46,880 nucleotides of DNA from Escherichia phage BEK2, in sequence record MN158206.1. One strand, 5' to 3'. Shown in pieces: positions 2,653 to 44,363 of the stretch. The stretch's first letter is position 1. Every line of letters starts with the position of its first letter. A program made the translations under genes and the position numbers. The notes under the pieces are model-generated. The model ran no database searches. It worked only from the letters and a program-made list of their open reading frames with translations, and had not been told where the DNA came from.

Positions 2653-2692
2653 CACGAATTGCTAAACATAAAAGCCAGGGATGGCTTATAGT
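2649..2692 (+). promoter_or_regulatory. box promoter cassette P1
   Basis: ATAGCACGAATTGCTAAA (2649-2666), 22-nt spacer containing an AGCCA/TGGCT hairpin, TATAGT (2687-2692). The terL stop TAG is inside the box. Confidence 0.65.
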
Positions 2693-2727
2693 TACTTCAC
2701 ACAAACGAGATGAGAGGAGATAAACAA

Positions 2728-3111
2728 ATGGGACGCACTTCAAAGGTTGTATATCTTGGAAGCAACACTGGAGAGTGTGGTGGTTTTACAGTAGGAAAGG
2801 AATATAAGGCTTACAATTATAATACTGAATATAATTACATTTCAACTTATGATGATAAAGGTAGCTATCGTCAAATCAAGAACGGAGCATTCCACCACTT
2901 CAAACTCCATGATGAGGATGACCATTTTGTAACTGAGACTGAGTGCGCAGTCATGCAGCCCAGCGAAGATAAAAAACCATCTCTAATATATTGCATAAAC
3001 GGTCATGAAGTTGACATGATTGAGTTTGAAAATGTGCGCCATAAGGTTCTAGAGCTTGATGCTTATGGCGTAAAATGCGACACAATCAAGTTCGAAGTAA
3101 AATTCGAGTAA
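2728..3111 (+). CDS. hypothetical protein (insulated cassette between terL and portal)
   Basis: 127 aa; GAGAGGAG SD before ATG 2728. Bounded by P1 and terminator 3133-3155. N-terminus carries the FTVGKEY...YDDKG small-domain signature seen in other cassette-first genes. Confidence 0.6.
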   Translation: MGRTSKVVYLGSNTGECGGFTVGKEYKAYNYNTEYNYISTYDDKGSYRQIKNGAFHHFKLHDEDDHFVTETECAVMQPSEDKKPSLIYCINGHEVDMIEFENVRHKVLELDAYGVKCDTIKFEVKFE

Positions 3112-3132
3112 TCAAAAACTGTGTGATAAACT

Positions 3133-3155
3133 AGCCCCTAAATGGGGCTTTTTTT
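3133..3155 (+). terminator. rho-independent terminator
   Basis: AGCCCC-TAAAT-GGGGCT followed by T7. Confidence 0.8.
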
Positions 3156-3168
3156 ATTGGAGAAAAAC

Positions 3169-4437
3169 ATGGTTAAGACAGACAGCTACGCCAATATATT
3201 TCTCGGCGGCAGTGATGGTAGTGAGATTTACGGGAGCTTACAGAATCAGGAACCTACAATTCTGGGTTCGCTTTATGCAAATAATGCCATAGTGCGTAGA
3301 ATTATCGACACAATCCCTGAGACAGCATTAGCGGCAGGATTCCACATTGATGGCATTGATGATGAGCCTGCCTTCTGGTCACGCTGGGATGATCTAGAAA
3401 TGACGCAGAATATTAACGATGCTTGGTCTTGGGCTAGATTATTCGGTGGAGCCGCTATTGTCGCTATCGTTAAGGACAATAGGGCGCTAACAAGTCCTGT
3501 CAGAGAAGGTGCCGAACTTGAAACTGTTAGAGTTTACGACCGCACACAAGTAAAAGTACAAACTCGCGAGGAGAATCCCCGTAACGCACGTTTTGGTAAG
3601 CCACTAACCTATCGCATTACCACAAATGAGAGCGATATGTTCTATGATGTGCATTACAGCAGAATTCACATCATTGACGGAGAGCGAATTCCTAACGTAA
3701 TGCGTCGGCAAAATGACGGCTGGGGCCGCAGCGTTCTATCCAGTGACATTCTTGACTCAATCAAGGATTACACCAACTGCGAACGACTGGCTACGCAACT
3801 ACTGAGAAGAAAGCAGCAAGCAGTGTGGAAAGCCAAAGGTCTGGCTGAGTTGTGTGATGATAGCGAGGGATTTGGTGCCGCAAGGTTGCGCCTAGCACAG
3901 GTTGATAATAATAGCGGAGTTGGTCAGGCGATTGGGATTGATGCAGAATCTGAAGAGTATAGCGTTCTAAACTCTGACATTGGCGGGATTGATGCGTTTC
4001 TGGATAAGAAGTTTGACAGAATCGTTGCTCTGAGCGGTATTCATGAAATTATCCTCAAGAACAAAAACGTTGGCGGCGTGTCATCAAGTCAAAACACTGC
4101 ACTTGAGACATTCCACAAGCTAATTGACCGCAAGCGTAACTCTGAGCTGCTTCCTGTTCTTGAGTTCTTAATTCCGTTCATCGTTAACGTTGACGAATGG
4201 TCGGTTGAGTTTAACCCCTTAGCTCAGGAATCAAGCAAGGACAAAGCGGAGATTCTGGAGAGGAACGTAAACAGCATCGCGACGCTAATTGCATCTGGCG
4301 CTATGGATATTGATGAGGCGAGAGATACATTGCGTACAATCGCTCCAGAGGTTAAGATTAGTGACGGTTCAGTAGAGACAGAGGTGACAATTAGTGAAAC
4401 CAGTAACGACCCGCTGGAAGTATCCGCAGACAATTGA
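3169..4437 (+). CDS. portal protein
   Basis: 422 aa, located between terL and the Mu-F-like head protein. GGAG SD before ATG 3169 (the 3142 ATG lies inside the terminator hairpin). Acidic C-terminus. Confidence 0.75.
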   Translation: MVKTDSYANIFLGGSDGSEIYGSLQNQEPTILGSLYANNAIVRRIIDTIPETALAAGFHIDGIDDEPAFWSRWDDLEMTQNINDAWSWARLFGGAAIVAIVKDNRALTSPVREGAELETVRVYDRTQVKVQTREENPRNARFGKPLTYRITTNESDMFYDVHYSRIHIIDGERIPNVMRRQNDGWGRSVLSSDILDSIKDYTNCERLATQLLRRKQQAVWKAKGLAELCDDSEGFGAARLRLAQVDNNSGVGQAIGIDAESEEYSVLNSDIGGIDAFLDKKFDRIVALSGIHEIILKNKNVGGVSSSQNTALETFHKLIDRKRNSELLPVLEFLIPFIVNVDEWSVEFNPLAQESSKDKAEILERNVNSIATLIASGAMDIDEARDTLRTIAPEVKISDGSVETEVTISETSNDPLEVSADN

Positions 4438-5122
4438 GAGCCAGGTTAACCGCAATCTAAGTATTGCGGTAACTGAGTTAATTTCAGCAATGAAGGAGTC
4501 AGCAACAAGGCTTAAAATTGATACTGCGGAGGAACTGGAGGAGGAGGATGGATACCTTGATGGGGTAATTGCGGCATTGGTGGCTTCCTTTATATCAACA
4601 ATCCCAGCCATAGGGGCGGCGATATACAGATACAATAGCTCTCAATTTCTTGCGCTTGCAATCAAGACCGGAGGAAGATCCAACCCTAGCGTTCTAGACC
4701 TTGAAGTTAATGGCATTAATGGCGATGAGCCGTGGTATAATGATGACCTTAATCAGTGGGTTTACACCACAAACAAGTCAGCGATTAAATTACTGAATAA
4801 CATTAAAGATGACTTCATTCAAACGGCATCAACAGCACAGAATGGTGACTACGTTGAGTTATCAGATAGGTACAAAACATACAGAAAGCGAACGGCAAAC
4901 ATCGCATCTGGGATTGTGTCAAGCCTAAACTCTACACTTATGAGGCGGAGGATTGATGATGCTGGCGTTAGTCGTTACATCTGGCATGGTATGCTGGACG
5001 ATAGGGAGCGCCAGTCTCACATAGCAAGAGAAGGCCTTAGCTTTAAACTTGGTGGTAACGATATATTTCCAGGTCAAGAATACGGCTGTCGTTGTTGGTC
5101 TGTTCCAGATTGGGAATCATAA
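4394..5122 (+). CDS. head morphogenesis protein (Mu F / SPP1 gp7-like)
   Basis: C-terminal WHGMLDDRERQSHIAREG...PGQEYGCRCW matches the Mu F-type domain signature. GTG start with GAGGTG SD overlaps the portal 3' end; alternative ATG at 4492. Confidence 0.65.
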   Translation: MKPVTTRWKYPQTIESQVNRNLSIAVTELISAMKESATRLKIDTAEELEEEDGYLDGVIAALVASFISTIPAIGAAIYRYNSSQFLALAIKTGGRSNPSVLDLEVNGINGDEPWYNDDLNQWVYTTNKSAIKLLNNIKDDFIQTASTAQNGDYVELSDRYKTYRKRTANIASGIVSSLNSTLMRRRIDDAGVSRYIWHGMLDDRERQSHIAREGLSFKLGGNDIFPGQEYGCRCWSVPDWES

Positions 5123-17059: not shown

Positions 17060-20000
17060 ATGGCACAAATGATCAAAACAAACATGAGGCTTTGTGATAT
17101 GGCTGAAGATATTAAGATTTATGGTGCTAAGGGTGGTAGTCAGAAGCCGCATCAACCGGTGGAGCAGGAAGATAACCTCATTTCACTAAACAAGGTTAAG
17201 GTGTTGCTTGCTGTCGCTGACGGAGAGGTTGATTCAAACTTCTCAATGAAGGATTTATACCTTGCTGACGTTCCGGTGCAAAACCAGGATGGTAGCTACA
17301 ACTACGAAGGTGTTCGCGCTGAGTTCCGTGCTGGAACGCAGTATCAGGACTATATCGCTGGCCTTGATGGTGCAAACTCAGAGATTCAGGCATCAAGGGA
17401 AATCAAAAACGATACCCCGTACATCATTGCGGTTAACAATACTCAGCTATCGGCGATTCGTGTAAAACTATATTGGCCTCGACTGGTTAAGCAAGAAAGC
17501 AATGGAGACCTGAACGGAACAACTTGTGAGTACGCAATTGACCTGTCTGTTAATGGTGGAGCGTATCAGGAATACACTCGAGGAGTTGCTAACGGGAAGA
17601 CAACTACAGGTTACGACCGCAGCATTCGTGTAAACCTTCCGGCTGAATTTGATAGCGCATTGGTTCGCATCAGAAAGATTACGACAGATTCGACGAGTAG
17701 CACATTGGTTAACGGGATGCAGATTACAACCTATCAGGAAGTAATTGACGCTAAATTCCGCTATCCGCTTACAGCTCTTGTTTACGTTGAGTTTGGCTCT
17801 GACCTTTTTCCTAACGGTATCCCGACAATCTCTATCAAGAAGCGATGGAAGTTGATTCAGGTTCCTACAAACTATGACCCTGAAAGCAGAACTTATAGTG
17901 GCACATGGAATGGTATATTTAAAATGGCATGGTCAAATAACCCTGCGTGGGTTCTTTATGACTTAGTGACAAACCGCCGATATGGTCTTGATCAGAGAGA
18001 GCTTGGTGTAGAGATTGATAAGTGGGGTCTGTACGAAGCTGCGCAATTCTGTGACCAAATGGTTCCAGATGGAAAAGGCGGCATGGAGCCGCGCTACCTG
18101 TGCGATATGGTTGTGCAGAATAAAGTTGAGGCTTACACGCTAATTCGTGATATCTGTTCGATCTTCCGTGGCCTGACTTTCTATGATGGCGAAAAGATTG
18201 GTATCGTAGTTGATAAGCCTCGTAATCCATCTTACATCTTCACGAATGATAACGTTGTAAACGGATTGTTCAGCCGCACCTTTGCCAGTGATAAAAGCCT
18301 TTACACCACGGCAAACGTTCAGTTTGATGATGTTGAGAACAACTATCAGCAGGATATTGAACCAGTATTCGAATTAGAGGCAACTCGTCGTTTTGGATTT
18401 AACCCTGTAGATTTAACTGCGATTGGATGTACTCGCAGAAGTGAAGCAAACAGACGTGGCAGATGGCTACTGAAAACCAACCTGAGAAGCGAAACCATCA
18501 GCTTCACTACCGGGTTGGAAGGTATGATTCCGATGATTGGTGAGGTTATTGCGGTCAATGACGCGGCATGGTCGAGCAACTATCAGTTAAACCTTTCCGG
18601 TCGCATTGAATCAGTCCAGGGATTGCAGGTTTTTACCCCGTTTAAAGTTGACGCAGCGCCTGGCGACAGGATTCTTCTGAACAAGCCTGACGGAAATCCA
18701 GAAGCAAGAACTATTGCAAGCATTTCGGAAGATGGTAGGACGATTAACCTAAACACGGCGTTCAGCTTTGTAGCTCAGCCTGATACTGTGTTCGCAATTG
18801 ATAAGGATAATCTGGCACTTCAGCAGTATGTTGTGACCGGTATTCAAAAAGCAGATACTGATGGTAAGGACTCATTCCAGTATACGATTACTGCGGTAGA
18901 GTACGACCCTAACAAGTATGACGAGATTGACTACGGCGTTAACATTGCTGACCGCCCGACTTCAATTGTGGAACCTGACAGATTGTCGCCACCAGAAAAC
19001 CTGACCGTTTCAAGCTATAGTAAGGTTGTTCAGGGATTATCAGTTGAGACGATGGTAATTGGTTGGGATAAGGCGCCATACGCTAAAACTTACAATGTTC
19101 AGTGGAGGAAAGAGAACGGCAACTGGATTAACGTACCCAGAACAGCTAGCACAGAGGTTGATATCGAAGGTATTTACGCAGGAATCTATGACGTCAGGGT
19201 TCGCAGCGTATCAGATACTGAAAACGTTTCTGCCTGGTCTGACATTGTAACTGTTTCGCTAACTGGCAAGATTGGTCGACCATCTGCGCCTACGGTTATC
19301 ACTGCGTCAACTGATGAAGTATTTGGTATCCGTGTTAAATGGGGATTCCCTGAAGGCTCTGGCGATACTGCTTACACTGAACTTCAGCAGGTTCCAGATA
19401 ATGGTGATGGTACTTACAATCCTGATAGCGCCAGTCTGTTAACTTTGGTCCCGTATCCTCAGTATGAATACTGGCACACACCGATTCAACCAGGCAAGGT
19501 GATTTGGTATCGCGCAAGATTGATTGACAGAATCGGCAATACCTCTGATTGGTCTTATTTCGCTAGAGGCATGAGTACTGACGACGCCAGCATCATCAAC
19601 GATTATATCAAGGTTGATATTGAGGGTTCGGAAGGATTCAAATACCTCGAGCAGAATGCGATTCAAAAGAATCAGGACATTCAGAATCAAGCTGAGGCAA
19701 TTATCGAGAACGCATTGGCTAATGATGGTGATGTTCGTCGCATGACAAAGGAGAACGGCAAACGTAAGGCTGAATATGTTCAGGCAGTTAATCTCATAGC
19801 CGATGAAACTCAGGCGCGTGTAGAGGCTCTCACGCAGCTTAAAGCGCAGATAGATGATGAAATTGTTGGTCAGATTACAACAATTGAAACAGCGCTAGCT
19901 ACAGAGACTGAAGCCAGGGCAACAGCTGACACGGCTTTAACCGCAAGGATTGGTGATAACGAGGCGGCAATAAACCAGAAGCTAGACGCGTTCTCTAATG

Positions 20001-20485
20001 CCACATCAACTGGCGTACAGTACGGAATTAGTTTGGGCCTTAAATACAATGGGCAGACTTATTCATCGGGTATGAGCATGGAACTTGTTGGCACTGGTGA
20101 CAATGTTCGCAGTCAATTCATTTTTGACGCAAACAGATTCGCGATCAGTAATGGCATTGGTTCTGGTTCCGGTCAGTGGCAACTCCCCTTCGTTGTCGAG
20201 AATGGAAACGTGATAATCCAGAGCGCAGTAATCGCCGATGGCTCAATCAGTAACGCTAAGATTGGTAACTTTATTCAGTCTAGTAATTACGTGGCTGGCT
20301 CAAATGGTTGGAGGATATCAAAGGATGGAGCAAGTGAATTCAATAATGTGGTTGTTAGGGGCGCCCTATACGCATCCGAAGGTAACTTTGCTTTTAACGG
20401 AACAAACAATACGGTACAGATTAACGGGAACGGAATCACTGTTAACTTACCTGGAGGAGGAAGAGTTGTGGTAGGTACGTTCTAA
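17060..20485 (+). CDS. tail tip / host-specificity protein (lambda J-like)
   Basis: About 1140 aa. The N-terminal GAKGGSQKPHQPVEQEDNLIS parallels the J N-terminus. FN3-like repeats lie around aa 640-800. Start is ambiguous (ATGs at 17060, 17069, 17085, 17099). Confidence 0.85.
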   Translation: MAQMIKTNMRLCDMAEDIKIYGAKGGSQKPHQPVEQEDNLISLNKVKVLLAVADGEVDSNFSMKDLYLADVPVQNQDGSYNYEGVRAEFRAGTQYQDYIAGLDGANSEIQASREIKNDTPYIIAVNNTQLSAIRVKLYWPRLVKQESNGDLNGTTCEYAIDLSVNGGAYQEYTRGVANGKTTTGYDRSIRVNLPAEFDSALVRIRKITTDSTSSTLVNGMQITTYQEVIDAKFRYPLTALVYVEFGSDLFPNGIPTISIKKRWKLIQVPTNYDPESRTYSGTWNGIFKMAWSNNPAWVLYDLVTNRRYGLDQRELGVEIDKWGLYEAAQFCDQMVPDGKGGMEPRYLCDMVVQNKVEAYTLIRDICSIFRGLTFYDGEKIGIVVDKPRNPSYIFTNDNVVNGLFSRTFASDKSLYTTANVQFDDVENNYQQDIEPVFELEATRRFGFNPVDLTAIGCTRRSEANRRGRWLLKTNLRSETISFTTGLEGMIPMIGEVIAVNDAAWSSNYQLNLSGRIESVQGLQVFTPFKVDAAPGDRILLNKPDGNPEARTIASISEDGRTINLNTAFSFVAQPDTVFAIDKDNLALQQYVVTGIQKADTDGKDSFQYTITAVEYDPNKYDEIDYGVNIADRPTSIVEPDRLSPPENLTVSSYSKVVQGLSVETMVIGWDKAPYAKTYNVQWRKENGNWINVPRTASTEVDIEGIYAGIYDVRVRSVSDTENVSAWSDIVTVSLTGKIGRPSAPTVITASTDEVFGIRVKWGFPEGSGDTAYTELQQVPDNGDGTYNPDSASLLTLVPYPQYEYWHTPIQPGKVIWYRARLIDRIGNTSDWSYFARGMSTDDASIINDYIKVDIEGSEGFKYLEQNAIQKNQDIQNQAEAIIENALANDGDVRRMTKENGKRKAEYVQAVNLIADETQARVEALTQLKAQIDDEIVGQITTIETALATETEARATADTALTARIGDNEAAINQKLDAFSNATSTGVQYGISLGLKYNGQTYSSGMSMELVGTGDNVRSQFIFDANRFAISNGIGSGSGQWQLPFVVENGNVIIQSAVIADGSISNAKIGNFIQSSNYVAGSNGWRISKDGASEFNNVVVRGALYASEGNFAFNGTNNTVQINGNGITVNLPGGGRVVVGTF

Positions 20486-20489
20486 AACA

Positions 20490-20509
20490 AAGGCCCCGAA
20501 AGGGGCCTT
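20490..20509. terminator. bidirectional terminator between convergent genes
   Basis: AAGGCCCC-GAAA-GGGGCCTT. Confidence 0.75.
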
Positions 20510-20513
20510 ATCT

Positions 20514-21449
20514 TTAATACATGTCAGGAAGGTAAGGAAGTGGTGTTGATATTGTTACGTCAGGCCTATTCCCTATCTCGTATCTGACAATCCTTGAACC
20601 GGTTCCTGAGCGAACATAACCATTGCTCATCACGATTCCTTTGTTTCTCAACTCCTTATATGCTGGTATTGCCCTTGTGTTAAATCCACATCTAAGTATT
20701 GGGAAGTAAGAGTCACCAATGTACTGGTTGCTACCTGATAGGTTTATGAATCCAGAAACAACCAATGGCCTTGTGACGGTTGATAAAGTGCAGGCACCAT
20801 TTGAGTTAAATATGTTAAGTCCCGGACCAGGGGTTGGTGCTACCATCTGAAAAATAATCAAGTCCATAGTGACACTTCCTGGGGTATCACCAGTATCTTC
20901 AGTATTTATGTTTGTACATATTAACTGATTGCTCCCATTGTACTCAACTGACACACCGGAGTTGCTCCACTTTCCAAATGGAATTCCATAAATTGGCAGC
21001 GTGTAAGTGTCGGTGAAAGATATACTCTGAGCAAACTTGCACACCAACAACCTGTCAGTGGTGGTTATCGAAGTAAAATCAGTACTATTCGCAACATAAA
21101 TACCCTGGCCAGCCGATGCTCTTAGTACCTCAACAACAGTGCCAGAAAATTGCGTTATACGGTCAGAGTATCCATTCTCGTAACCAATTGATATTGTTCC
21201 GCTTGATTCTGTTGATGAAAATCCATTTATGTAGTAAATCTCAACTCCCCTATCAAGTTCGAATGAGTAGGCGCCATTGTTAGGGATAAGGAACCTTGAC
21301 GCTCCTTCATTGCCCTGAATTGAAAATGTCTTACTAAACCCGCCGCTAGAAACGTTGAAATTGCCAGCGAAATTCAATGCCCGCATCCCTGCGGTAATTG
21401 TCATTGGCTTCCTTCCATCATTGAGGTCTATATAAATACCTTGAGCCAT
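20514..21449 (-). CDS. hypothetical protein; candidate receptor-binding protein
   Basis: 311 aa from ATG 21449 (AAGGAG SD; TAATG overlap with the lipoprotein gene). Gly/Ser/Thr/Asn-rich, beta-type composition. Convergent with the J-like gene. Confidence 0.45.
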   Translation of the reverse strand: MAQGIYIDLNDGRKPMTITAGMRALNFAGNFNVSSGGFSKTFSIQGNEGASRFLIPNNGAYSFELDRGVEIYYINGFSSTESSGTISIGYENGYSDRITQFSGTVVEVLRASAGQGIYVANSTDFTSITTTDRLLVCKFAQSISFTDTYTLPIYGIPFGKWSNSGVSVEYNGSNQLICTNINTEDTGDTPGSVTMDLIIFQMVAPTPGPGLNIFNSNGACTLSTVTRPLVVSGFINLSGSNQYIGDSYFPILRCGFNTRAIPAYKELRNKGIVMSNGYVRSGTGSRIVRYEIGNRPDVTISTPLPYLPDMY

Positions 21450-21679
21450 TAATTCCACTCCTTAGAGCCATAATCACTAACAGATCCACCGGAGCCTTTA
21501 ATACCAGCGTAGCGAATATCAACCTCACCAGCAGGAACAACTACACCACCTTTCCACTTAGACACGCACACGCCGTTTGCTTGCGTTGCACACCAACCAT
21601 CCGGGCGAGGACCAGAAGAACAACCAACTGCCATGATTACTGCTGCTGCGATGATTGCTGATTTGATGAAGTTATTCAT
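21449..21679 (-). CDS. small lipoprotein, Cor-like superinfection-exclusion candidate
   Basis: 76 aa from ATG 21679. Signal peptide plus lipobox ([12 protein letters not shown]). AAGGA SD. Location next to the tail-tip genes matches cor in T1/phi80-type phages. Confidence 0.55.
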
Positions 21680-21714
21680 TTTGTATTCCTTAGTAATTTC
21701 GTTTCGATGGAGTA

Positions 21715-21758
21715 ATAGTATCGCATCCTTGCGATCAGTGTTTAGCAATTAGTGCTAT
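21715..21758 (-). promoter_or_regulatory. box promoter cassette P3
   Basis: Minus strand: ATAGCACTAATTGCTAAA (21758-21741), 22-nt spacer, TACTAT (21720-21715), leader CCATCGAAACGAAA. The box encodes the last five residues (NSTNC) and the stop of the methyltransferase. Confidence 0.65.
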
Positions 21759-22431
21759 TCGCCAAAAATACAGCTCTTGCAAATCCACGAGGTGTAAGAC
21801 TGCGAATTACCTTTGTTTTCTTGCTCTTCCCGCCTAGCTTCTTGTGCTGGTCTGAGTATCCATCATTAACGTCAACTGGTGAGGCTTGAGGCCATTTAAA
21901 CCCATTGCCAGACCAAATGCACGTCTTCTTAGGATATGCGTCTCTTGGCTTTATTAGGTCGCTAAAAAACGGGTGTAAATCATCTTCCGGCAAATAGCCT
22001 CCGTATTCGTAAGGGTGAAACGTGTTATCAGGTTTACTCCAGAGCGATGACAGCACGCTGACTGGGTTCTCAATCATGTATGGAACTCCGTATTTTTCAG
22101 CCAGTTTAAAAGCAACCTTGCAAGTCTCTGCCGCCTCAATTTGGAAGTTTTGGTTGGCTAGGCGCTTACGCTCAAAGTGTGCTGCCCCGCTCACGGCTAA
22201 ATCCGTACAGGGCGGGAATGCCATGATAAAATCAGGCTTCACATCAAAATCAAAACTGGAATCTATCCAGGCATTAACGTATGTAATGTTCTCATGCTCA
22301 ACCTTTGCATTTAAGTCACTGTAGCTCCCGTGGTCGGAATCATCAAAGTTGAAGCAGCAGCATGTGTGGCCAGCTTCAGCCCAATCATTTACAGCCAAAC
22401 CAGAACCATCAAATAAAGACCAGATAACCAT
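21742..22431 (-). CDS. DNA (cytosine-5) methyltransferase, compact form
   Basis: Motif I SLFDGSG, motif [13 protein letters not shown], motif VI MIENPV, C-terminal [11 protein letters not shown]. Only 229 aa. Confidence 0.75.
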
Positions 22432-29139: not shown

Positions 29140-29157
29140 ATAGCACGAATTGCTAAG
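29140..29157 (+). promoter_or_regulatory. orphan box copy, antisense to the local operon
   Basis: ATAGCACGAATTGCTAAG on the + strand between two minus-strand genes. Nearest -10-like hexamer is TATAAA (29180-29185) at 24 nt, and it runs straight into the terminator hairpin. Confidence 0.5.
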
Positions 29158-30438: not shown

Positions 30439-30482
30439 ACCATACCTCATCCATGAGAAATGTCTTTAGCTTTTCGTGCTGC
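30439..30482 (-). promoter_or_regulatory. box promoter cassette P10 (inside coding sequence)
   Basis: Minus strand: GCAGCACGAAAAGCTAAA (30482-30465), 22-nt spacer, TATGGT (30444-30439), leader ACATCGAAAGCCGA. The box is translated as AARKAK near the C-terminus of the HTH protein. Confidence 0.5.
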
Positions 30483-30932
30483 CTCGTTAGCGGCCTTAAT
30501 CTTGCGCCATGAGCGACACTCTGGCTTGGTGGCTAATTCTGCATCAGTGACCACGCGCAGCATGTGACGTTTTTTGCAGCGCAGGGTTAGAGGCTTGCCA
30601 TTGCCGTCGAATTGCAGATCTGGTCGGCAGAATGTGGCTCTAAAACCTTCCCCGGTTCGTTTGTAGTAGTTGTGCGATAACTGAGCACCACGTGCGGAAA
30701 TCATGCCGCGCTTAAACCATTCTTCTACAGCCTGTGGTGTTACCTTTAGCTGCTTTGCGATATTCGCTTTTGTGCCGAAGAAATCAAGAACTATATCTAG
30801 TCGCGCGCGTAGTCCGGCTCTTACTTCATCTTTTAAAACGTAGTAGCCTGAAGGTCGTTTGCGTTGTTTTTTGTCTTCAGTGCGGATAGTTCCGTTGTTC
30901 CCGTTGATTGTTCGCTTGTCGACTGTATTCAT
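30447..30932 (-). CDS. HTH DNA-binding protein (Cro/YdaS-like), candidate transcription regulator
   Basis: GTKANIAKQLKVTPQAVEEWFKRG is a helix-turn-helix segment. Basic N- and C-termini. GAGGT SD. Confidence 0.6.
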   Translation of the reverse strand: MNTVDKRTINGNNGTIRTEDKKQRKRPSGYYVLKDEVRAGLRARLDIVLDFFGTKANIAKQLKVTPQAVEEWFKRGMISARGAQLSHNYYKRTGEGFRATFCRPDLQFDGNGKPLTLRCKKRHMLRVVTDAELATKPECRSWRKIKAANEAARKAKDISHG

Positions 30933-37882: not shown

Positions 37883-39466
37883 TCACCCCAGCAGTCGCGG
37901 ATTAATGTAAACCTTATCACCAATCAGGCACGTGTAGTTTTTCTCGTCAAGCATTGGCAGTAGGTGATCTTTAATCTTCGTCATTACCCCAGCCTGAGCC
38001 TCGAACGGCTTAACCTTTCGAGCAGCTTCATATAATGAGCGAATACCAACTACACCCTTGCCGTTCTTTCCTTGCTTGATCAGGATATCAATCAGCTTAT
38101 TCATCTCGGCATTATCGCCAGCGTGACCAGCGGCGTTAGCAGATGAAAGATAAGTCTTGCTAAGTTCATTGAACATAATTACAGCTTCTTGCATGGTATC
38201 AAGCTCAATCTCTCTTGACTTCTGTGGACTCCCGCCATTTGGGTTAAACCAGTTACGCACAGTGTGAAGAACCGCCGCAATCCTGATGGCCTGCTTATCG
38301 AACTTACCCAGGGCGCCGCGCAACATTGTGTGGGAATACTTCCCGCCGTCCGCAAGGTGAGGCTCCATCTCCTGACGTGCGCGGTTAAGATACTTCATTG
38401 CTGAGTTGCTCACTGTCAACTTAACATCTTGCTCATTCATTATTTCATGAACTAATCGGAAATAGTCGGCCTTGAGTCCACCATCAATTGGCTCATATGT
38501 TGAATCTCCATTCTCATCAACAAACACACGCTCGCCCAAAAATGACTTTTCACGCACAAGCAGAAATCGCTCCGACACACCGATACCACGTGCGCCAGCG
38601 TTCATGATTGCATTGATTGTTTCGTCTTGCGCAATTACTGAGATGCAACCCATAGCAACGAAGCTCATGTTGTTCTCTGCGTTCGCACGCGCAATGGACA
38701 CGTTACCAGCATCCCATGCCTTCAGTACAAGTTCGCTGTTCGTCTTCTTGGATCCGTCACCGTACGTCATACCTAGCAGTGAGTTGACGCTCGTCGCCTC
38801 ATCAGAGATAACCGCGAAGTTACCTTGTCGGTTGTTTATTCGTGCCAGACCTTCCGGCGTGGTGTCGGATACAGGGAAAACGATATCACAAAGTTTCTCG
38901 AGCTTTTCCTCAAGCTCCTCCTTCTCCTCAAAAAGAGAAGCCATCTCTGAAGGAGATTTCTCCTGCTTCATCTCTTTGGATAATGCAGATAGTTTGGCCA
39001 TGATCTTCTTGCGCTCACGCTTGCGAACTTCATTAAGACGCTCAGTCTCAGCAATCATTGGAGCAATCGATAGCGAGTTAATTGCTGATTTACCAGTTGA
39101 TGGCGGCTGGCTTGTCACGACGTAGAGCGCAGTTGGTTGTTGGGTTCCATGATACTCAACTGTAAATCGGCCCAGCATCGCAGCGGAAATACACCCCAGG
39201 AAGTGCATGTATGCGGACGACTCAGGAAACTGAACCGAACGAGCTATGTTAGATGACAGTTTGCCAACAACATCAATATCATTACCTAGTGAGATTACGG
39301 GATACTTGTCATTAGCTGCATCAATCTCGACCGGAGCCTTCCAAAATGATTGAGAATGACGATAGCCATTGGCATTGATAGCGACGCGCAGGGGTGGGAG
39401 GTTGTCCGCAGCAGCAATTGCCATAACCTGTTCAACAGACAGTTTATCTTCGTTGAAATCAAACAT
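37883..39466 (-). CDS. P-loop NTPase, DUF3987/YfjI-like (candidate replication initiator/helicase-type protein)
   Basis: 527 aa. Walker A SQPPSTGKSA, Walker B NFAVISDEAT. N-terminal 42 aa and C-terminal ~70 aa are paralogous to ORF 42798-43322. Family name is from recollection and needs an HMM search. Confidence 0.6.
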   Translation of the reverse strand: MFDFNEDKLSVEQVMAIAAADNLPPLRVAINANGYRHSQSFWKAPVEIDAANDKYPVISLGNDIDVVGKLSSNIARSVQFPESSAYMHFLGCISAAMLGRFTVEYHGTQQPTALYVVTSQPPSTGKSAINSLSIAPMIAETERLNEVRKRERKKIMAKLSALSKEMKQEKSPSEMASLFEEKEELEEKLEKLCDIVFPVSDTTPEGLARINNRQGNFAVISDEATSVNSLLGMTYGDGSKKTNSELVLKAWDAGNVSIARANAENNMSFVAMGCISVIAQDETINAIMNAGARGIGVSERFLLVREKSFLGERVFVDENGDSTYEPIDGGLKADYFRLVHEIMNEQDVKLTVSNSAMKYLNRARQEMEPHLADGGKYSHTMLRGALGKFDKQAIRIAAVLHTVRNWFNPNGGSPQKSREIELDTMQEAVIMFNELSKTYLSSANAAGHAGDNAEMNKLIDILIKQGKNGKGVVGIRSLYEAARKVKPFEAQAGVMTKIKDHLLPMLDEKNYTCLIGDKVYINPRLLG

Positions 39467-39496
39467 TACTTCTCTCCGTATTGTTTCTGAGCGGAC

Positions 39497-42318: not shown

Positions 42319-42798
42319 ATGAACGAGAAGGTAACATTAGGCCAAGTGATTCGTGAGATGGTAAAGGCGGCGCTTAAGTCTGAGGATAAGCAGATCAGCG
42401 TGACACTCAACAAGATTGAGAGCCTTATTGGCGCAGAGGAGGGTGGTCTACATAAGCTTAAGAGCTCATACATCTATAATACAACGGCTCGCATGCCTGA
42501 GTTGAGAGATGCCGGACTGAAGGCGACCCACCATTATGATGAGGATGAGGGTGATAGTGAGTTTGGTGAAACCACTCTGGCTGGGGAAAAGAAGTTAGTT
42601 ATCAAGCTGATTCCTGGAGCTGCAAACATTGGAATCAGGAAGAAGACCAACGACGCGATCAAGGATGAGGCAATCAATGGGTTCAAGGCCAAGATTTCGA
42701 AGGTGATGCCAGACCTCTCTGAGTATGAGGGTGAAGCGCTTGCAGCCGCCATGAAGGCCATTAAGGATTACCGTTTAATTATTGAGGAGATTAAGTAA
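42319..42798 (+). CDS. hypothetical acidic protein
   Basis: 159 aa from ATG 42319 (GAGAGGAG SD). TAATG coupling to the truncated P-loop paralog. Confidence 0.6.
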   Translation: MNEKVTLGQVIREMVKAALKSEDKQISVTLNKIESLIGAEEGGLHKLKSSYIYNTTARMPELRDAGLKATHHYDEDEGDSEFGETTLAGEKKLVIKLIPGAANIGIRKKTNDAIKDEAINGFKAKISKVMPDLSEYEGEALAAAMKAIKDYRLIIEEIK

Positions 42799-43322
42799 TG
42801 TTTGACTTTAACGAGGATAAACTGACAGAAGAGCAGGTTATGCAAGTAGCCATGGCAGATAGCCTTCCACCACTACGTGTTGCAATCAGCGCTAACGGGT
42901 ATCGACAGTCAACGGCGTTTTGGGGTTCGATTGATACCTCAGAGGTGTATAGTGGTGATGAGCTTGGTGTACTGATTAAAATCATCAGGAAAATGGGAGT
43001 TAACGGCAAAGGAGTTGTCGGCATTAGGTCTCTATACGAAGGTGCTCGCAAGGTTAAGCCCTTTGAGGGTAGCAATGGAATCATGGCGCGTATTAAGGAT
43101 GAGCTCATCCCAGCTCTAGAGGAAATTAATATCGCTTGCCTAATTGGAGATAAGATTTATGTCCACCCAGCTATCATTGATGAGTACTGGCAACCCAACT
43201 TCAAAACTTACGAAGGTGAGCACCCCAGTAGACTACCACACCACTTGCGATACAGTGACGATGAGATAATAAAGGCGATTCGGTTCTACTGGGAAGCTAA
43301 ATCACTGCTTAGCGGCGGATAG
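42798..43322 (+). CDS. domain-deleted paralog of the 37883-39466 P-loop protein (N- and C-terminal modules only)
   Basis: First 42 aa are 32/42 identical to the full-length protein. NGKGVVGIRSLYEGARKVKPFE matches its C-terminal module. No Walker motifs. Unique 45-aa tail. Confidence 0.7.
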   Translation: MFDFNEDKLTEEQVMQVAMADSLPPLRVAISANGYRQSTAFWGSIDTSEVYSGDELGVLIKIIRKMGVNGKGVVGIRSLYEGARKVKPFEGSNGIMARIKDELIPALEEINIACLIGDKIYVHPAIIDEYWQPNFKTYEGEHPSRLPHHLRYSDDEIIKAIRFYWEAKSLLSGG

Positions 43323-44149: not shown

Positions 44150-44193
44150 ATAGCACTTTTTGCCTAACCCTCTTCGGAGGGTTTTGTTATAGT
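44150..44193 (+). promoter_or_regulatory. box promoter cassette P20 with nested terminator
   Basis: ATAGCACTTTTTGCCTAA (44150-44167), CCCTC-TTCG-GAGGG-TTTT (44168-44185), TATAGT (44188-44193), leader CATCGAAAGCAAAC. Confidence 0.6.
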
Positions 44194-44324: not shown

Positions 44325-44363
44325 CACGAAATGATAAGCCGCTCCGGCGGGTTTTGTTATAGT
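44321..44363 (+). promoter_or_regulatory. box promoter cassette P21 (degenerate right half) with nested terminator
   Basis: ATAGCACGAAATGATAAG (44321-44338), CCGC-TCCG-GCGG-GTTTT, TATAGT (44358-44363). Near-duplicate of P20. Confidence 0.5.

Follow-up and report, generated by a model that had tools for sequence, protein, structure and literature searches.

Small siphoviruses carry an LptD-type "bona fide RBP locus" encoding their receptor-binding protein (RBP), whose target is the essential outer-membrane protein LptD (Maffei et al. 2021; Black et al. 2025). Infection by JeanPiccard (Bas02) is abolished by lptD mutations and that by AugustePiccard (Bas01) is likewise LptD dependent (Maffei 2021), a dependence that was reconfirmed for both phages in a 2026 receptor screen (preprint). 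The lptD deletions Δ(Y658-Y678) and Δ(L394-V396) block Bas01 as well as Bas02. The RBP of Oekolampad has been solved on LptDE in the open state (PDB 9RPT, 9RQI and 9RPW; Dunbar et al. PNAS 2025). Its tail-proximal part is disordered in the LptDE structure, and the complex forms slowly and only partially in vitro, reaching 15 to 35% after 48 h. LptD point mutations that give phage resistance abolish RBP binding. The structure of the small lipoprotein Rtp45, in turn, shows it attached to LptDE(M) from the periplasm, in a position that prevents the RBP from binding (PDB 9RPS; Dunbar 2025). The exclusion consists in a steric displacement of the EL4 loop, exerted from within the LptD lumen; within Rtp45, Cys30 and Cys38 form a disulfide and strand 30-35 pairs with LptD (Dunbar 2025). 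Exclusion by Rtp45 is thereby supported by structure (Dunbar 2025), and a plating assay was not found in this literature.

The locus described here lies in a window of 46,880 nucleotides from Escherichia phage BEK2 (sequence record MN158206.1), a T1-like siphovirus of the Drexlerviridae (Braunvirinae). We consider it very probable that this is the LptD-type RBP locus of the phage, comprising genes for an LptD-binding RBP and for an exclusion lipoprotein. Such a pair has been described before (Maffei 2021, Black 2025, Dunbar 2025), and the locus makes no conceptual addition to it. Its value lies in an upgrade of the annotation from two "hypothetical proteins", as the BEK3 records label both genes, to an LptD RBP and an exclusion lipoprotein.

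Layout of the locus and its candidate promoter

The RBP gene lies directly beyond the 3' end of the gpJ homologue, the two genes being convergent, and it adjoins the small lipoprotein gene. The elements on which the preceding sequence-only reading had been built (box, lipoprotein ORF, 311-aa ORF, TAATG junction and terminator) were all recovered in place, on the minus strand. In window positions, the features are as follows.

17060..20485, plus strand: J-like central tail fibre / tail-tip gene (GenBank start 17099)
20490..20509, called on both strands by the terminator scan: bidirectional intrinsic terminator, AAGGCCCC-GAAA-GGGGCCTT
20514..21449, minus strand: gene for the 311-aa RBP, DUF6453 / Rtp44 / RBPOeko family
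21449..21679, minus strand: gene for the 76-aa lipoprotein, Rtp45 type, PF24052
21698..21720, minus strand: core promoter-like segment, with the -10-like hexamer TACTAT (21720-21715) followed by CATCGAAACGAA (21709-21698)
21742..21758, minus strand: box element ATAGCACTAATTGCTAA, motif ATAGCAC-N3-TTGCTAA with the inverted repeat TAGCA-N5-TGCTA

The translational coupling that had been proposed for the two minus-strand genes is borne out by their junction, TAATG, in which the lipoprotein stop codon TAA (21451-21449) and the RBP start codon ATG (21449-21447) have one base in common, at 21449. A Shine-Dalgarno sequence, AAGGAG, is located within the lipoprotein gene, and the junction is kept in JeanPiccard, AugustePiccard, Rtp and HK578. 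At the other end of the pair, the terminator hairpin (8-bp stem with 6 GC, 4-nt loop) lies 4 nt past the J-like stop codon and likewise 4 nt past that of the 311-aa gene. Its detection on both strands agrees with the earlier description of a bidirectional terminator common to the convergent J-like and RBP genes, and it is kept in JeanPiccard, AugustePiccard and Rtp.

The arrangement of J, lipoprotein and RBP genes recurs in JeanPiccard, AugustePiccard, Rtp, Oekolampad, HK578 and an E. coli prophage; a triad of J, lipoprotein and DUF6453 genes, with the genes overlapping, is found in Dhillonvirus phages and an E. coli prophage. The pairs Rtp44/Rtp45, bas02_0024/0025 and bas01_0028/0029 belong to the same two families and share the gene order, the TAATG overlap, the convergence with gpJ and the terminator. 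With identities of 79 to 97% for the RBP and 83 to 87% for the lipoprotein, the loci of Rtp, JeanPiccard and AugustePiccard show no substantial difference from the one described here.

Upstream of the lipoprotein gene, the earlier reading had placed a box-driven promoter, P3. The box copy at 21758-21742 (minus strand) is indeed one of a 20-copy family: at two mismatches or fewer the motif was counted 20 times in the window, against 0.5 expected from shuffles, and 0 of 100 shuffles reached 20 copies. The element is represented in the repeat families D4, D7 and D8. When aligned, the copies show one common layout, ahead of start codons. On the 3' side of the P3 box, as for most other copies, follow TACTAT, CATCGAAACGAA, a Shine-Dalgarno sequence and ATG, and the core segment of P3 aligns with the TATAGT/TATTAT…CATCGAAACGAA segment at other box elements. 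A generic sigma-70 scan did not call P3, because the spacing of 22 nt between TTGCTA and the -10 hexamer is non-canonical. We retain P3 as a putative promoter because its element is one of 20 that share a fixed layout before start codons. The segment CATCGAAACGAA would then be the putative transcript start, and the centre of the inverted repeat (21750) would lie about 42 nt upstream of +1, which the -10 hexamer places at about 21708. P3 may also be of the early/middle type, as had been suggested; boxes stand ahead of genes of the structural half as well (504, 2649 and 10502). A class-II-like activator of the Rtp52 type would fit a stereotyped box promoter with an inverted repeat at about -42, and such promoters would open the transcription programme of T1-like phages to testing. 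A homologue of Rtp52 is encoded at 30447-30932. The genome paper of Rtp reportedly describes Rtp52 together with its inverted repeats.

A perfect palindrome, ATCGCAAGGATGCGAT (21735-21720), was also considered as the "box" and rejected. It occurs as a single copy in the window, which equals the chance expectation, and is just the spacer hairpin of the P3 box copy.

The P3 box overlaps the final codons and the stop codon of an upstream Dcm-like methyltransferase gene (…N-S-T-N-C-stop). JeanPiccard and AugustePiccard, both Braunvirinae, likewise have this methyltransferase gene upstream and this box promoter, the box 5' of the lipoprotein gene being kept. Rtp differs in that the upstream methyltransferase is absent and the box is degenerate. 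The -10-like hexamer together with the CATCGAAACGAA segment is kept in all three phages.

Megablast matches to many phages start at about 20381 and end at 21759 (window positions). The extreme C-terminus of J (encoded at about 20381-20485) travels with the RBP cassette and presumably serves as the docking site of the RBP, a role that the 2026 receptor preprint supports. The J protein of HK578 has 38.8% identity to the J-like protein as a whole, rising to 82% in the final 40 aa. Within the Drexlerviridae, the limits of the cassette appear to be the J-tip codons and the box promoter, both of which may be recombination joints. In Pfam, the J-like protein itself contains the domains FNIII-A_GpJ, Phage-tail_3 and Phage_Tail_Tip.

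Identity of the two proteins and predicted receptor

Of the profile and structure searches that the earlier reading had proposed as a check, profile searches were run for both proteins and a structure search for the 311-aa protein. The 311-aa protein matches PF20051 (DUF6453; Pfam) with 401.7 bits at a cut-off of 25, its residues 4-291 aligning with positions 1-290 of the 291 in the profile, and it matches PHROG 1265 with an E value of 9.1e-98. A phmmer search across the PDB returned, at E ≤ 1, chain C of 9RPT alone (Oekolampad RBP; E 1.9e-40, residues 1-311). An AF2 model of the protein is all-beta (pLDDT 84.3, pTM 0.85) and Gly, Ser, Thr and Asn together make up 38.6% of its residues, so that its initial description as beta-rich and rich in these four amino acids holds. 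In Foldseek, the model again found 9rpt_C as its sole PDB match at E ≤ 0.001 (E 9.3e-17; target-normalised TM 0.85). NCBIfam gave no match for the 311-aa protein or the 76-aa lipoprotein. Going by its sequence and modeled structure, the 311-aa protein is a DUF6453-family RBP with the fold of the Oekolampad RBP, and LptD(E) is its predicted target, to be bound on the extracellular face. The protein shares 97.1% identity with its counterpart in Bas02 (302/311), 80.1% with that in Bas01, 79.4% with Rtp44 and about 33% with the Oekolampad RBP. The last is a full-length homologue of the same fold, but at 33% identity the loop contacts are not transferable. The N-terminus of the 311-aa protein is conserved, M1, G4, D11, G12, M16, I18, T19 and G21 being invariant among the sequences compared.

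The 76-aa lipoprotein matches PF24052 (Pfam) with 120.2 bits at a cut-off of 27. The corresponding PDB search with phmmer at E ≤ 1 returned chain D of 9RPS (Rtp45; E 6.3e-40, residues 1-76) together with chance matches, and no Llp chain. At 82.9% identity overall and 50 of 57 residues in the mature part, it is nearly identical to Rtp45. The lipobox AVG-C noted earlier was found by regular expression as AVGC with Cys20, behind a signal whose hydrophobic core reaches a KD15 of 2.36; the residue at +2 is Ser rather than Asp. Lipoproteins without Asp at +2 are sorted by the Lol pathway to the outer membrane. The cysteines are at positions 20, 30 and 38, and the Cys30-Cys38 pair is kept relative to Rtp45. 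Residues 30-35 read CATQAN, compared with CATQAS in Rtp45, so that five of six are the same in the LptD-pairing strand. By homology, the 76-aa protein would be an Rtp45-type superinfection-exclusion lipoprotein that binds LptDE from the periplasm.

The 311-aa protein had been put forward as the terminal RBP and the lipoprotein as its cognate exclusion factor. This assignment matches both the genetics and the cryo-EM of direct homologues (97.1% identity to Bas02, 83% to Rtp45), and we infer by homology that the phage's own proteins bind LptD and mediate exclusion. The idea that FhuA or another TonB-dependent transporter is the receptor did not survive the comparison, the homologues using LptD instead.

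If the pair acts as its homologues do, the RBP would be a monomer of two beta-sandwiches, attached without a covalent bond to the C-terminal end of the J-like fibre. Its distal loops would enter the extracellular lumen of the LptD barrel, leading to irreversible adsorption and DNA ejection. After export and lipidation at Cys20, the 76-aa protein, co-transcribed and translationally coupled with the RBP, would reach the outer membrane and reside in its inner leaflet. At this site it would bind LptDE periplasmically and push a beta-hairpin up the LptD lumen, displacing extracellular loop 4; LptD with a displaced loop 4 could not accept the RBP. Such a block would spare the infected cell superinfection and keep progeny phage from being lost on cell debris. 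The two genes would thus form a self-contained cassette with its own box-type promoter, converging on the tail operon and stopping at the common terminator.

It is improbable that the same pair is used with another or an extra receptor, the RBP having shifted to a different outer-membrane protein or J contributing a second receptor. The RBP does depart from the Bas02 RBP by nine substitutions, but the Oekolampad RBP still binds LptD at about 33% identity, which makes a receptor switch unlikely at 97%. A second receptor has a precedent in Bas01/AugustePiccard, whose dual need for NupG and LptD was attributed to a domain of the J protein (2026 receptor preprint). Over residues 700-1000, however, the J protein of the present phage is nearer to that of Bas02 (93-97% identity) than to that of Bas01 (72-88%). 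It is of the Bas02/Rtp type, without the divergent region that marks the NupG-dependent Bas01, so that LptD is expected as the only protein receptor. The terminal receptor can accordingly be predicted from the locus as LptD, probably alone and without NupG. Such a prediction would be of use for the choice of phages in cocktails, for predicting cross-resistance and for obtaining resistant production strains through deletion of LptD loop 11.

We regard as highly unlikely a reading in which the 311-aa protein, as a "membrane protein" or moron, is no part of the virion and the lipoprotein works alone. PHROG 1265 is labelled "membrane protein", in the category "moron, auxiliary metabolic gene and host takeover", the same label stands on several phage RefSeq records, and transcription of the gene is separate from that of the tail operon. 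We nevertheless rejected the label: the protein has neither a signal peptide nor a transmembrane-like hydrophobic segment (Kyte-Doolittle 19-residue maximum 1.15), and its homologue is soluble and structurally solved. Both the loss of RBP binding in the resistance-conferring LptD point mutants and the way in which alleles of the 311-aa gene track receptor specificity across families speak against it as well. No proteomic evidence of a DUF6453 protein in virions was found; the virion mass-spectrometry study consulted, on the related AHP24-type phages, covered only seven major bands and argues neither way. We give an equally small chance to the lipoprotein blocking FhuA, a TonB-dependent transporter, in the manner of Cor or Llp. 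Its gene does adjoin a tail-tip gene, and a 78%-identical homologue is labelled "Cor superinfection exclusion protein" in one database record. T1 Cor also gives a weak match to PF24052 over residues 3-51, signal peptide included, but at 17.7 bits this is below the cut-off of 27, and BLASTP at E ≤ 100 produced no alignment between the lipoprotein and T1 Cor. Moreover, Rtp45, 83% identical to the lipoprotein, was found bound to LptDE rather than FhuA, and the PDB search had returned no Llp chain. Rtp is reportedly independent of FhuA and TonB. The LptD-type RBP with its exclusion lipoprotein remains our preferred reading.

Relation to the FhuA-type systems of T5 and T1

The sequence-only reading had likened the pair to pb5 and Llp of T5 and to Cor of T1 and phi80. 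As to T5, the functional logic of the comparison stands: there, too, the tip of the central fibre bears an RBP that is monomeric and a protein of its own, and a small periplasm-facing outer-membrane lipoprotein alters the extracellular loops of the receptor such that RBP binding is blocked. Membership in the same family does not appear to, as no sequence or fold match was obtained and pb5 was absent from the top 50 Foldseek matches of the 311-aa model. The systems also differ in that T5 uses FhuA, a TonB-dependent transporter, with long-range allostery by Llp, whereas here the target would be LptDE, with direct steric displacement of EL4. In contrast to T5, the two genes here are co-transcribed and translationally coupled.

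The likeness to Cor is likewise divided. The FhuA-type loci of T1, N15 and HK022 resemble the present locus in the slot downstream of the J homologue and in the presence of a small exclusion lipoprotein. The accessory proteins differ: in T1, gp32 and gp31 are without a Pfam match, and their genes point in the same direction as J. The resemblance to both pb5/Llp and Cor appears to be one of functional analogy rather than family membership, with some room left by the sub-threshold profile match for a very distant link between the lipoprotein and Cor.

Homologues in Kuravirus podoviruses

Homologues of both the RBP and the lipoprotein were also observed in Kuravirus podoviruses, which as a side observation may be new. 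In Kuravirus/Gordonclarkvirinae (phiEco32, SU10, MN03 and about 90 further records), the gene for the DUF6453 homologue directly follows the tail-needle gene, and the gene for the Rtp45-like lipoprotein lies in the early gene region. The C-terminus of the needle protein is a J-like tail-tip domain. We considered this C-terminus as an LptD-type J tip and rejected it, since the FhuA-type J tip of T1 scores higher (70 versus 31-36); the needle tip, being closer to the T1 tip, therefore shows a generic J-like likeness and is no evidence for LptD. It is conceivable, though rather doubtful, that the DUF6453 RBP and the PF24052 lipoprotein constitute a portable LptD-targeting kit that extends beyond small siphoviruses. 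If this were true, LptD would be an unrecognised terminal receptor of the abundant Kuravirus podovirus group, for which the current literature assumes O-antigen plus LPS core.

Gene structure and protein families of the pair

A nucleotide search with positions 20300-22000 of the window gave 100% identity with Escherichia phage BEK3 (MN158207.1; Drexlerviridae, Braunvirinae; host E. coli K514), with JeanPiccard/Bas02 (87%) and AugustePiccard/Bas01 (80%) as the next best matches. The window corresponds to essentially the entire BEK3 genome with differences of a few bases, and the BEK3 record labels both genes of the pair "hypothetical protein." Relative to MN158207.1, the window shows a G/A difference at 3252 and is shorter by 4 nt (46880 versus 46884) somewhere between ~23170 and 23560, with downstream coordinates shifted by 3-4 nt.

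Beside the J-like tail-tip gene, we confirmed a two-gene unit on the minus strand, together with a terminator common to both transcription directions:

20514..21449 (-), ORF of 311 aa
21449..21679 (-), ORF of 76 aa
20490-20509 (both strands, terminator scan), hairpin AAGGCCCC-GAAA-GGGGCCTT

With the J-like gene ending at 20485 and the 311-aa gene at 20514, the terminator occupies the gap between their stop codons, and its call on both strands agrees with a bidirectional function. The overlap behind the proposed translational coupling was verified: in the TAATG junction, one base belongs both to the TAA that closes the small gene and to the ATG that opens the large one, an AAGGAG Shine-Dalgarno sequence precedes this ATG, and the junction is kept in JeanPiccard, AugustePiccard, Rtp, and HK578.

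The 311-aa protein had been described as rich in Gly, Ser, Thr, and Asn and in beta-structure, and this description holds: the four residues make up 38.6% of the sequence, and an AlphaFold2 model calculated with 23 homologues consists of beta-strands only (pLDDT 84.3, pTM 0.85). Its suggested role as the terminal receptor-binding protein (RBP) is supported by homology to DUF6453-type RBPs that use the outer-membrane receptor LptD. Over its full length, the window RBP falls into Pfam DUF6453 (401.7 bits, cut-off 25), and the sole entry set matched among all PDB sequences was 9RPT/9RPW/9RQI chain C (E 1.9e-40, residues 1-311). Foldseek comparison of the model with the PDB gave 9rpt_C as the only significant match (E 9.3e-17, probability 1.00, target-normalized TM 0.85), and nine substitutions separate the window protein from the Bas02 RBP. 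PHROG 1265 and many RefSeq records tag the DUF6453 protein as a "membrane protein" of the category "moron / host takeover," a label that is misleading, since the window RBP has zero hydrophobic segments and its homologue is a soluble RBP of solved structure. No proteomic data on DUF6453 proteins in virions turned up in our literature search; one virion study covered seven major bands.

The 76-aa protein begins with a basic n-region, a hydrophobic core, and the lipobox AVGC, as expected of the lipoprotein it had been taken for, and the lipobox is followed by Ser at +2, which under the Lol rule of E. coli means sorting to the outer membrane. It belongs to PF24052, the "Phage lipoprotein family" (120.2 bits, cut-off 27), and matched 9RPS chain D among PDB sequences (E 6.3e-40, residues 1-76). 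Its mature form shares 50/57 residues with Rtp45, the lipoprotein of phage Rtp, keeping Cys30 and Cys38 and differing at one position in strand 30-35. As a check of the method, the identity that we obtained between Rtp44, the RBP of Rtp, and the Bas01 protein (96.5%) agrees with the 96% of Dunbar et al. (PMC12685063).

Identity of the window RBP, lipoprotein, and J protein to their counterparts in related phages
Phage; RBP; lipoprotein; J
JeanPiccard/Bas02; 97.1% (302/311); 82.9%; 95.8%
AugustePiccard/Bas01; 80.1%; 86.8%; 92.3%
Rtp (Rtp44/Rtp45/Rtp43); 79.4%; 82.9%; 95.6%
HK578 (Dhillonvirus); 90.0%; 84.2%; 38.8%
Oekolampad; 33.4%; 40.6%; 37.9%

Predicted receptor and exclusion mechanism

The system to which these homologues belong is already known and structurally characterized, and potentially new material lies only outside the reading of the pair itself. 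In small siphoviruses, the "bona fide RBP locus" that immediately follows gpJ exists as alleles that track the terminal receptor; small lptD deletions block AugustePiccard, JeanPiccard, and five other phages of one allele, and LptD use was predicted for Rtp (Maffei et al. 2021, PMC8594841). Black et al. 2025 (PMC13035648) assigned the putative LptD RBP to a 930-960-bp ORF, modeled it as two lectin-like beta-sandwiches, obtained resistant E. coli by deletion of LptD loop 11, and located RBP conservation at the tail-proximal base, not at the LptD-binding tip. The invariant residues of the window RBP family, an N-terminal cluster (M1, G4, D11, G12, M16, I18, T19, G21) and a C-terminal Tyr, follow the same pattern. 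In a 2026 preprint, a large screen again tied the DUF6453-type family to LptD, and the same preprint reported that the extreme C terminus of GpJ covaries with RBP type and that Bas01 additionally needs NupG, via a J-protein domain.

Structures from Dunbar et al. 2025 (PMC12685063) show the Oekolampad RBP on open-state LptDE and Rtp45 on the periplasmic side of LptDE(M). Formation of the Oekolampad RBP complex in vitro was slow and partial, and phage-resistance point mutations in LptD abolished RBP binding in vitro (PMC12685063). In the Rtp45 complex, Cys30 and Cys38 form a disulfide, residues 30-35 pair with LptD, and a hairpin goes up the LptD lumen and displaces extracellular loop 4 (EL4) by ≤20 Å, making RBP binding incompatible; the evidence for exclusion by Rtp45 in that study is structural (PMC12685063). 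Homology to this solved protein supports the earlier proposal that the window lipoprotein is the cognate superinfection-exclusion factor.

The arrangement of the genes, their families, the fold, the near-identity to characterized proteins, and the conservation of the cassette were directly established, and we regard it as very probable that the pair comprises an LptD RBP at the J tip and an LptDE-binding exclusion lipoprotein; binding, exclusion, virion location, and promoter function we infer by homology. The RBP would sit at the tip of J and insert its distal loops into the LptD barrel, leading to irreversible adsorption. The lipoprotein, made from the transcript of the RBP, would be lipidated, sorted to the outer membrane, and bind LptDE from the periplasm, holding EL4 in a position where the RBP is excluded. 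Superinfection would thereby be blocked, and progeny would not be lost on debris. Within residues ~700-1000 of J (gene 17060-20485), the window protein is 93-97% identical to that of Bas02 and 72-88% identical to that of Bas01 per 100-aa bin, and is thus of the Bas02/Rtp type and not of the divergent Bas01 type. From this resemblance, the window phage is predicted to need LptD only, without NupG.

The pair had been likened to pb5/Llp of T5 and to the Cor lipoprotein of T1-type phages, both acting on FhuA. The functional logic of an RBP with an exclusion lipoprotein is indeed shared with T5, but PDB sequence searches with both window proteins at E≤1 gave no pb5 or Llp homology, no T5 pb5 entry was among the top 50 Foldseek matches listed for the RBP model, and exclusion is steric in the Rtp45-type system whereas it is allosteric for T5 Llp (PMC12685063). 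T1 carries other accessory genes and the Cor lipoprotein in the corresponding slot; here too the likeness is functional, but T1 Cor has no BLASTP similarity to the window lipoprotein and matches PF24052 only below threshold. We therefore classify the pair as an LptD-type RBP locus that works like pb5/Llp and Cor but appears not to be a member of those families.

Exchange of the cassette and homologues in Kuravirus

In megablast comparisons with ~45 vB_EcoS phages, BEK1-1, and BEK6, the match runs from ~20381, taking in the last ~35 J codons, to 21759, exactly at the box element; the gene upstream of the cassette differs from that of the window in all these phages. In HK578, which belongs to a different family-level group, J is 38.8% identical to the window protein overall but 82% identical in the last 40 residues, and the RBP and lipoprotein reach 90% and 84%. 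An E. coli prophage (GCA_015730745.1, contig JADIHZ010000006.1, 6783-11669) adjoining the abg operon contains the convergent triad of J-like, PF24052, and DUF6453 genes, the genes overlapping, with an RBP 64% identical to that of the window, and the LptD module thus serves temperate phages as well. These match limits, the HK578 tip identity, and the prophage triad define a mobile unit of J tip, terminator, RBP gene, lipoprotein gene, and promoter. This mosaic unit at 20381-21759 agrees with published horizontal exchange and with the proposed docking of the RBP to the J tip.

Both protein families, DUF6453 and PF24052, are also present in Kuravirus/Gordonclarkvirinae podoviruses, at the following loci:

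2674-4678, Kuravirus MN03
2926-3207, phiEco32
20058-21086, SU10 (KM044272.1)

In MN03, a gene for a 322-aa protein that combines a coiled coil with a C-terminal J-type Phage_Tail_Tip domain, the positional counterpart of the SU10 tail needle gp18, is directly followed by a 344-aa DUF6453 gene (Pfam E 1.2e-24; BLASTP E 9e-15 against the window RBP; hhalign probability 98.7% over 278 columns against the RBP alignment) and then by a transglycosylase gene. The DUF6453 gene occurs in ~90 Kuravirus-like records, SU10 among them; gp19 goes unmentioned in the paper on the SU10 structure. In phiEco32, the early small-gene region encodes gp106, an Rtp45-like PF24052 lipoprotein (E 2.4e-36) with 43% identity to the window lipoprotein that keeps the RPDGWCA…GVCVS motif including both disulfide cysteines. 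The C terminus of the Kuravirus needle is closer to the T1 J tip than to LptD-type tips, so the J-tip similarity is not LptD-specific. The literature searched contained no link between Kuravirus and LptD, and it is a reasonable hypothesis, drawn from these homologies, that LptD may be an unrecognized terminal receptor of Kuravirus.

Box elements and other repeats

The box element noted ahead of the lipoprotein gene was confirmed. Allowing ≤2 mismatches, the window has 20 copies of its motif, ATAGCAC-N3-TTGCTAA, against 0.5 expected, and 0/100 shuffles reached 20:

504, 2649, 3892, 10502, 24945, 29140, 33441, 35782, 43319, 44150, 44321, 44852, 45556 (+), box copies
21758, 22504, 23296, 37543, 39973, 41344, 41715 (-), box copies
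21758-21742 (-), perfect box copy of the lipoprotein locus
21720-21715 (-), TACTAT, -10 of the lipoprotein locus
30447-30932 (-), gene for a homologue of Rtp52, 96% identical

Alignment of all copies revealed a fixed layout of box, 22-nt spacer, TATAGT-like -10, CATCGAAACGAA, Shine-Dalgarno sequence, and start codon, and from this repeated architecture the element ahead of the lipoprotein gene is a putative promoter. Two further minus-strand copies lie ahead of the upstream Dcm-like methyltransferase gene and Roi-like gene, so that its earlier name, P3, makes sense. A generic sigma-70 scan made no call at P3, because the spacing from TTGCTA to the -10 is 22 nt. Most boxes are found in the non-structural half of the genome, with copies at 504, 2649, and 10502 in the structural half. 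The box motif contains the inverted repeat TAGCA-N5-TGCTA, which would be centered near -42, a class II activator position, if the -10 is at 21720-21715. In 2006, Wietzorrek and colleagues reportedly put forward Rtp52 as a regulator, with ten conserved inverted repeats ahead of Rtp genes as its binding sites. If its homologue in the window is an activator, the box genes would be "middle" genes, which is a lead rather than a result.

The 22-nt spacer is often a GC-rich hairpin (e.g., 21735-21720, 39950-39935, 44168-44185, 44338-44355, and 41322-41309). Some of these hairpins have a T-run and resemble the terminator of the upstream gene nested in the next promoter; others, including that of P3 (ATCGCA-AGGA-TGCGAT), have none. 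The Dcm-like C5-cytosine methyltransferase gene upstream of the cassette (21742-22431, minus strand; PHROG 757, weak Pfam DNA_methylase match) ends in the box, its last codons and stop being the box sequence (AAT AGC ACT AAT TGC TAA); at the corresponding position, Rtp has no such gene. Between the minus-strand genes for the lateral tail fiber and the primase, the perfect copy at 29140-29156 (+) has a strong hairpin but no plus-strand ORF behind it and could be an orphan or antisense promoter.

Two direct repeat pairs, 23418-23475/41998-42055 (58 nt, 79%) and 23603-23671/42189-42257 (69 nt, 72%), ~18.58 kb apart, include an AT-rich TATTATTATTA tract, lie in large divergent intergenic regions, and could be a regulatory or origin-like region. 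The longest inverted repeat of the window (39341-39471 and 42793-42923; 131 nt, 71% complementary, arms 3.3 kb apart) overlaps coding regions of opposite strands.
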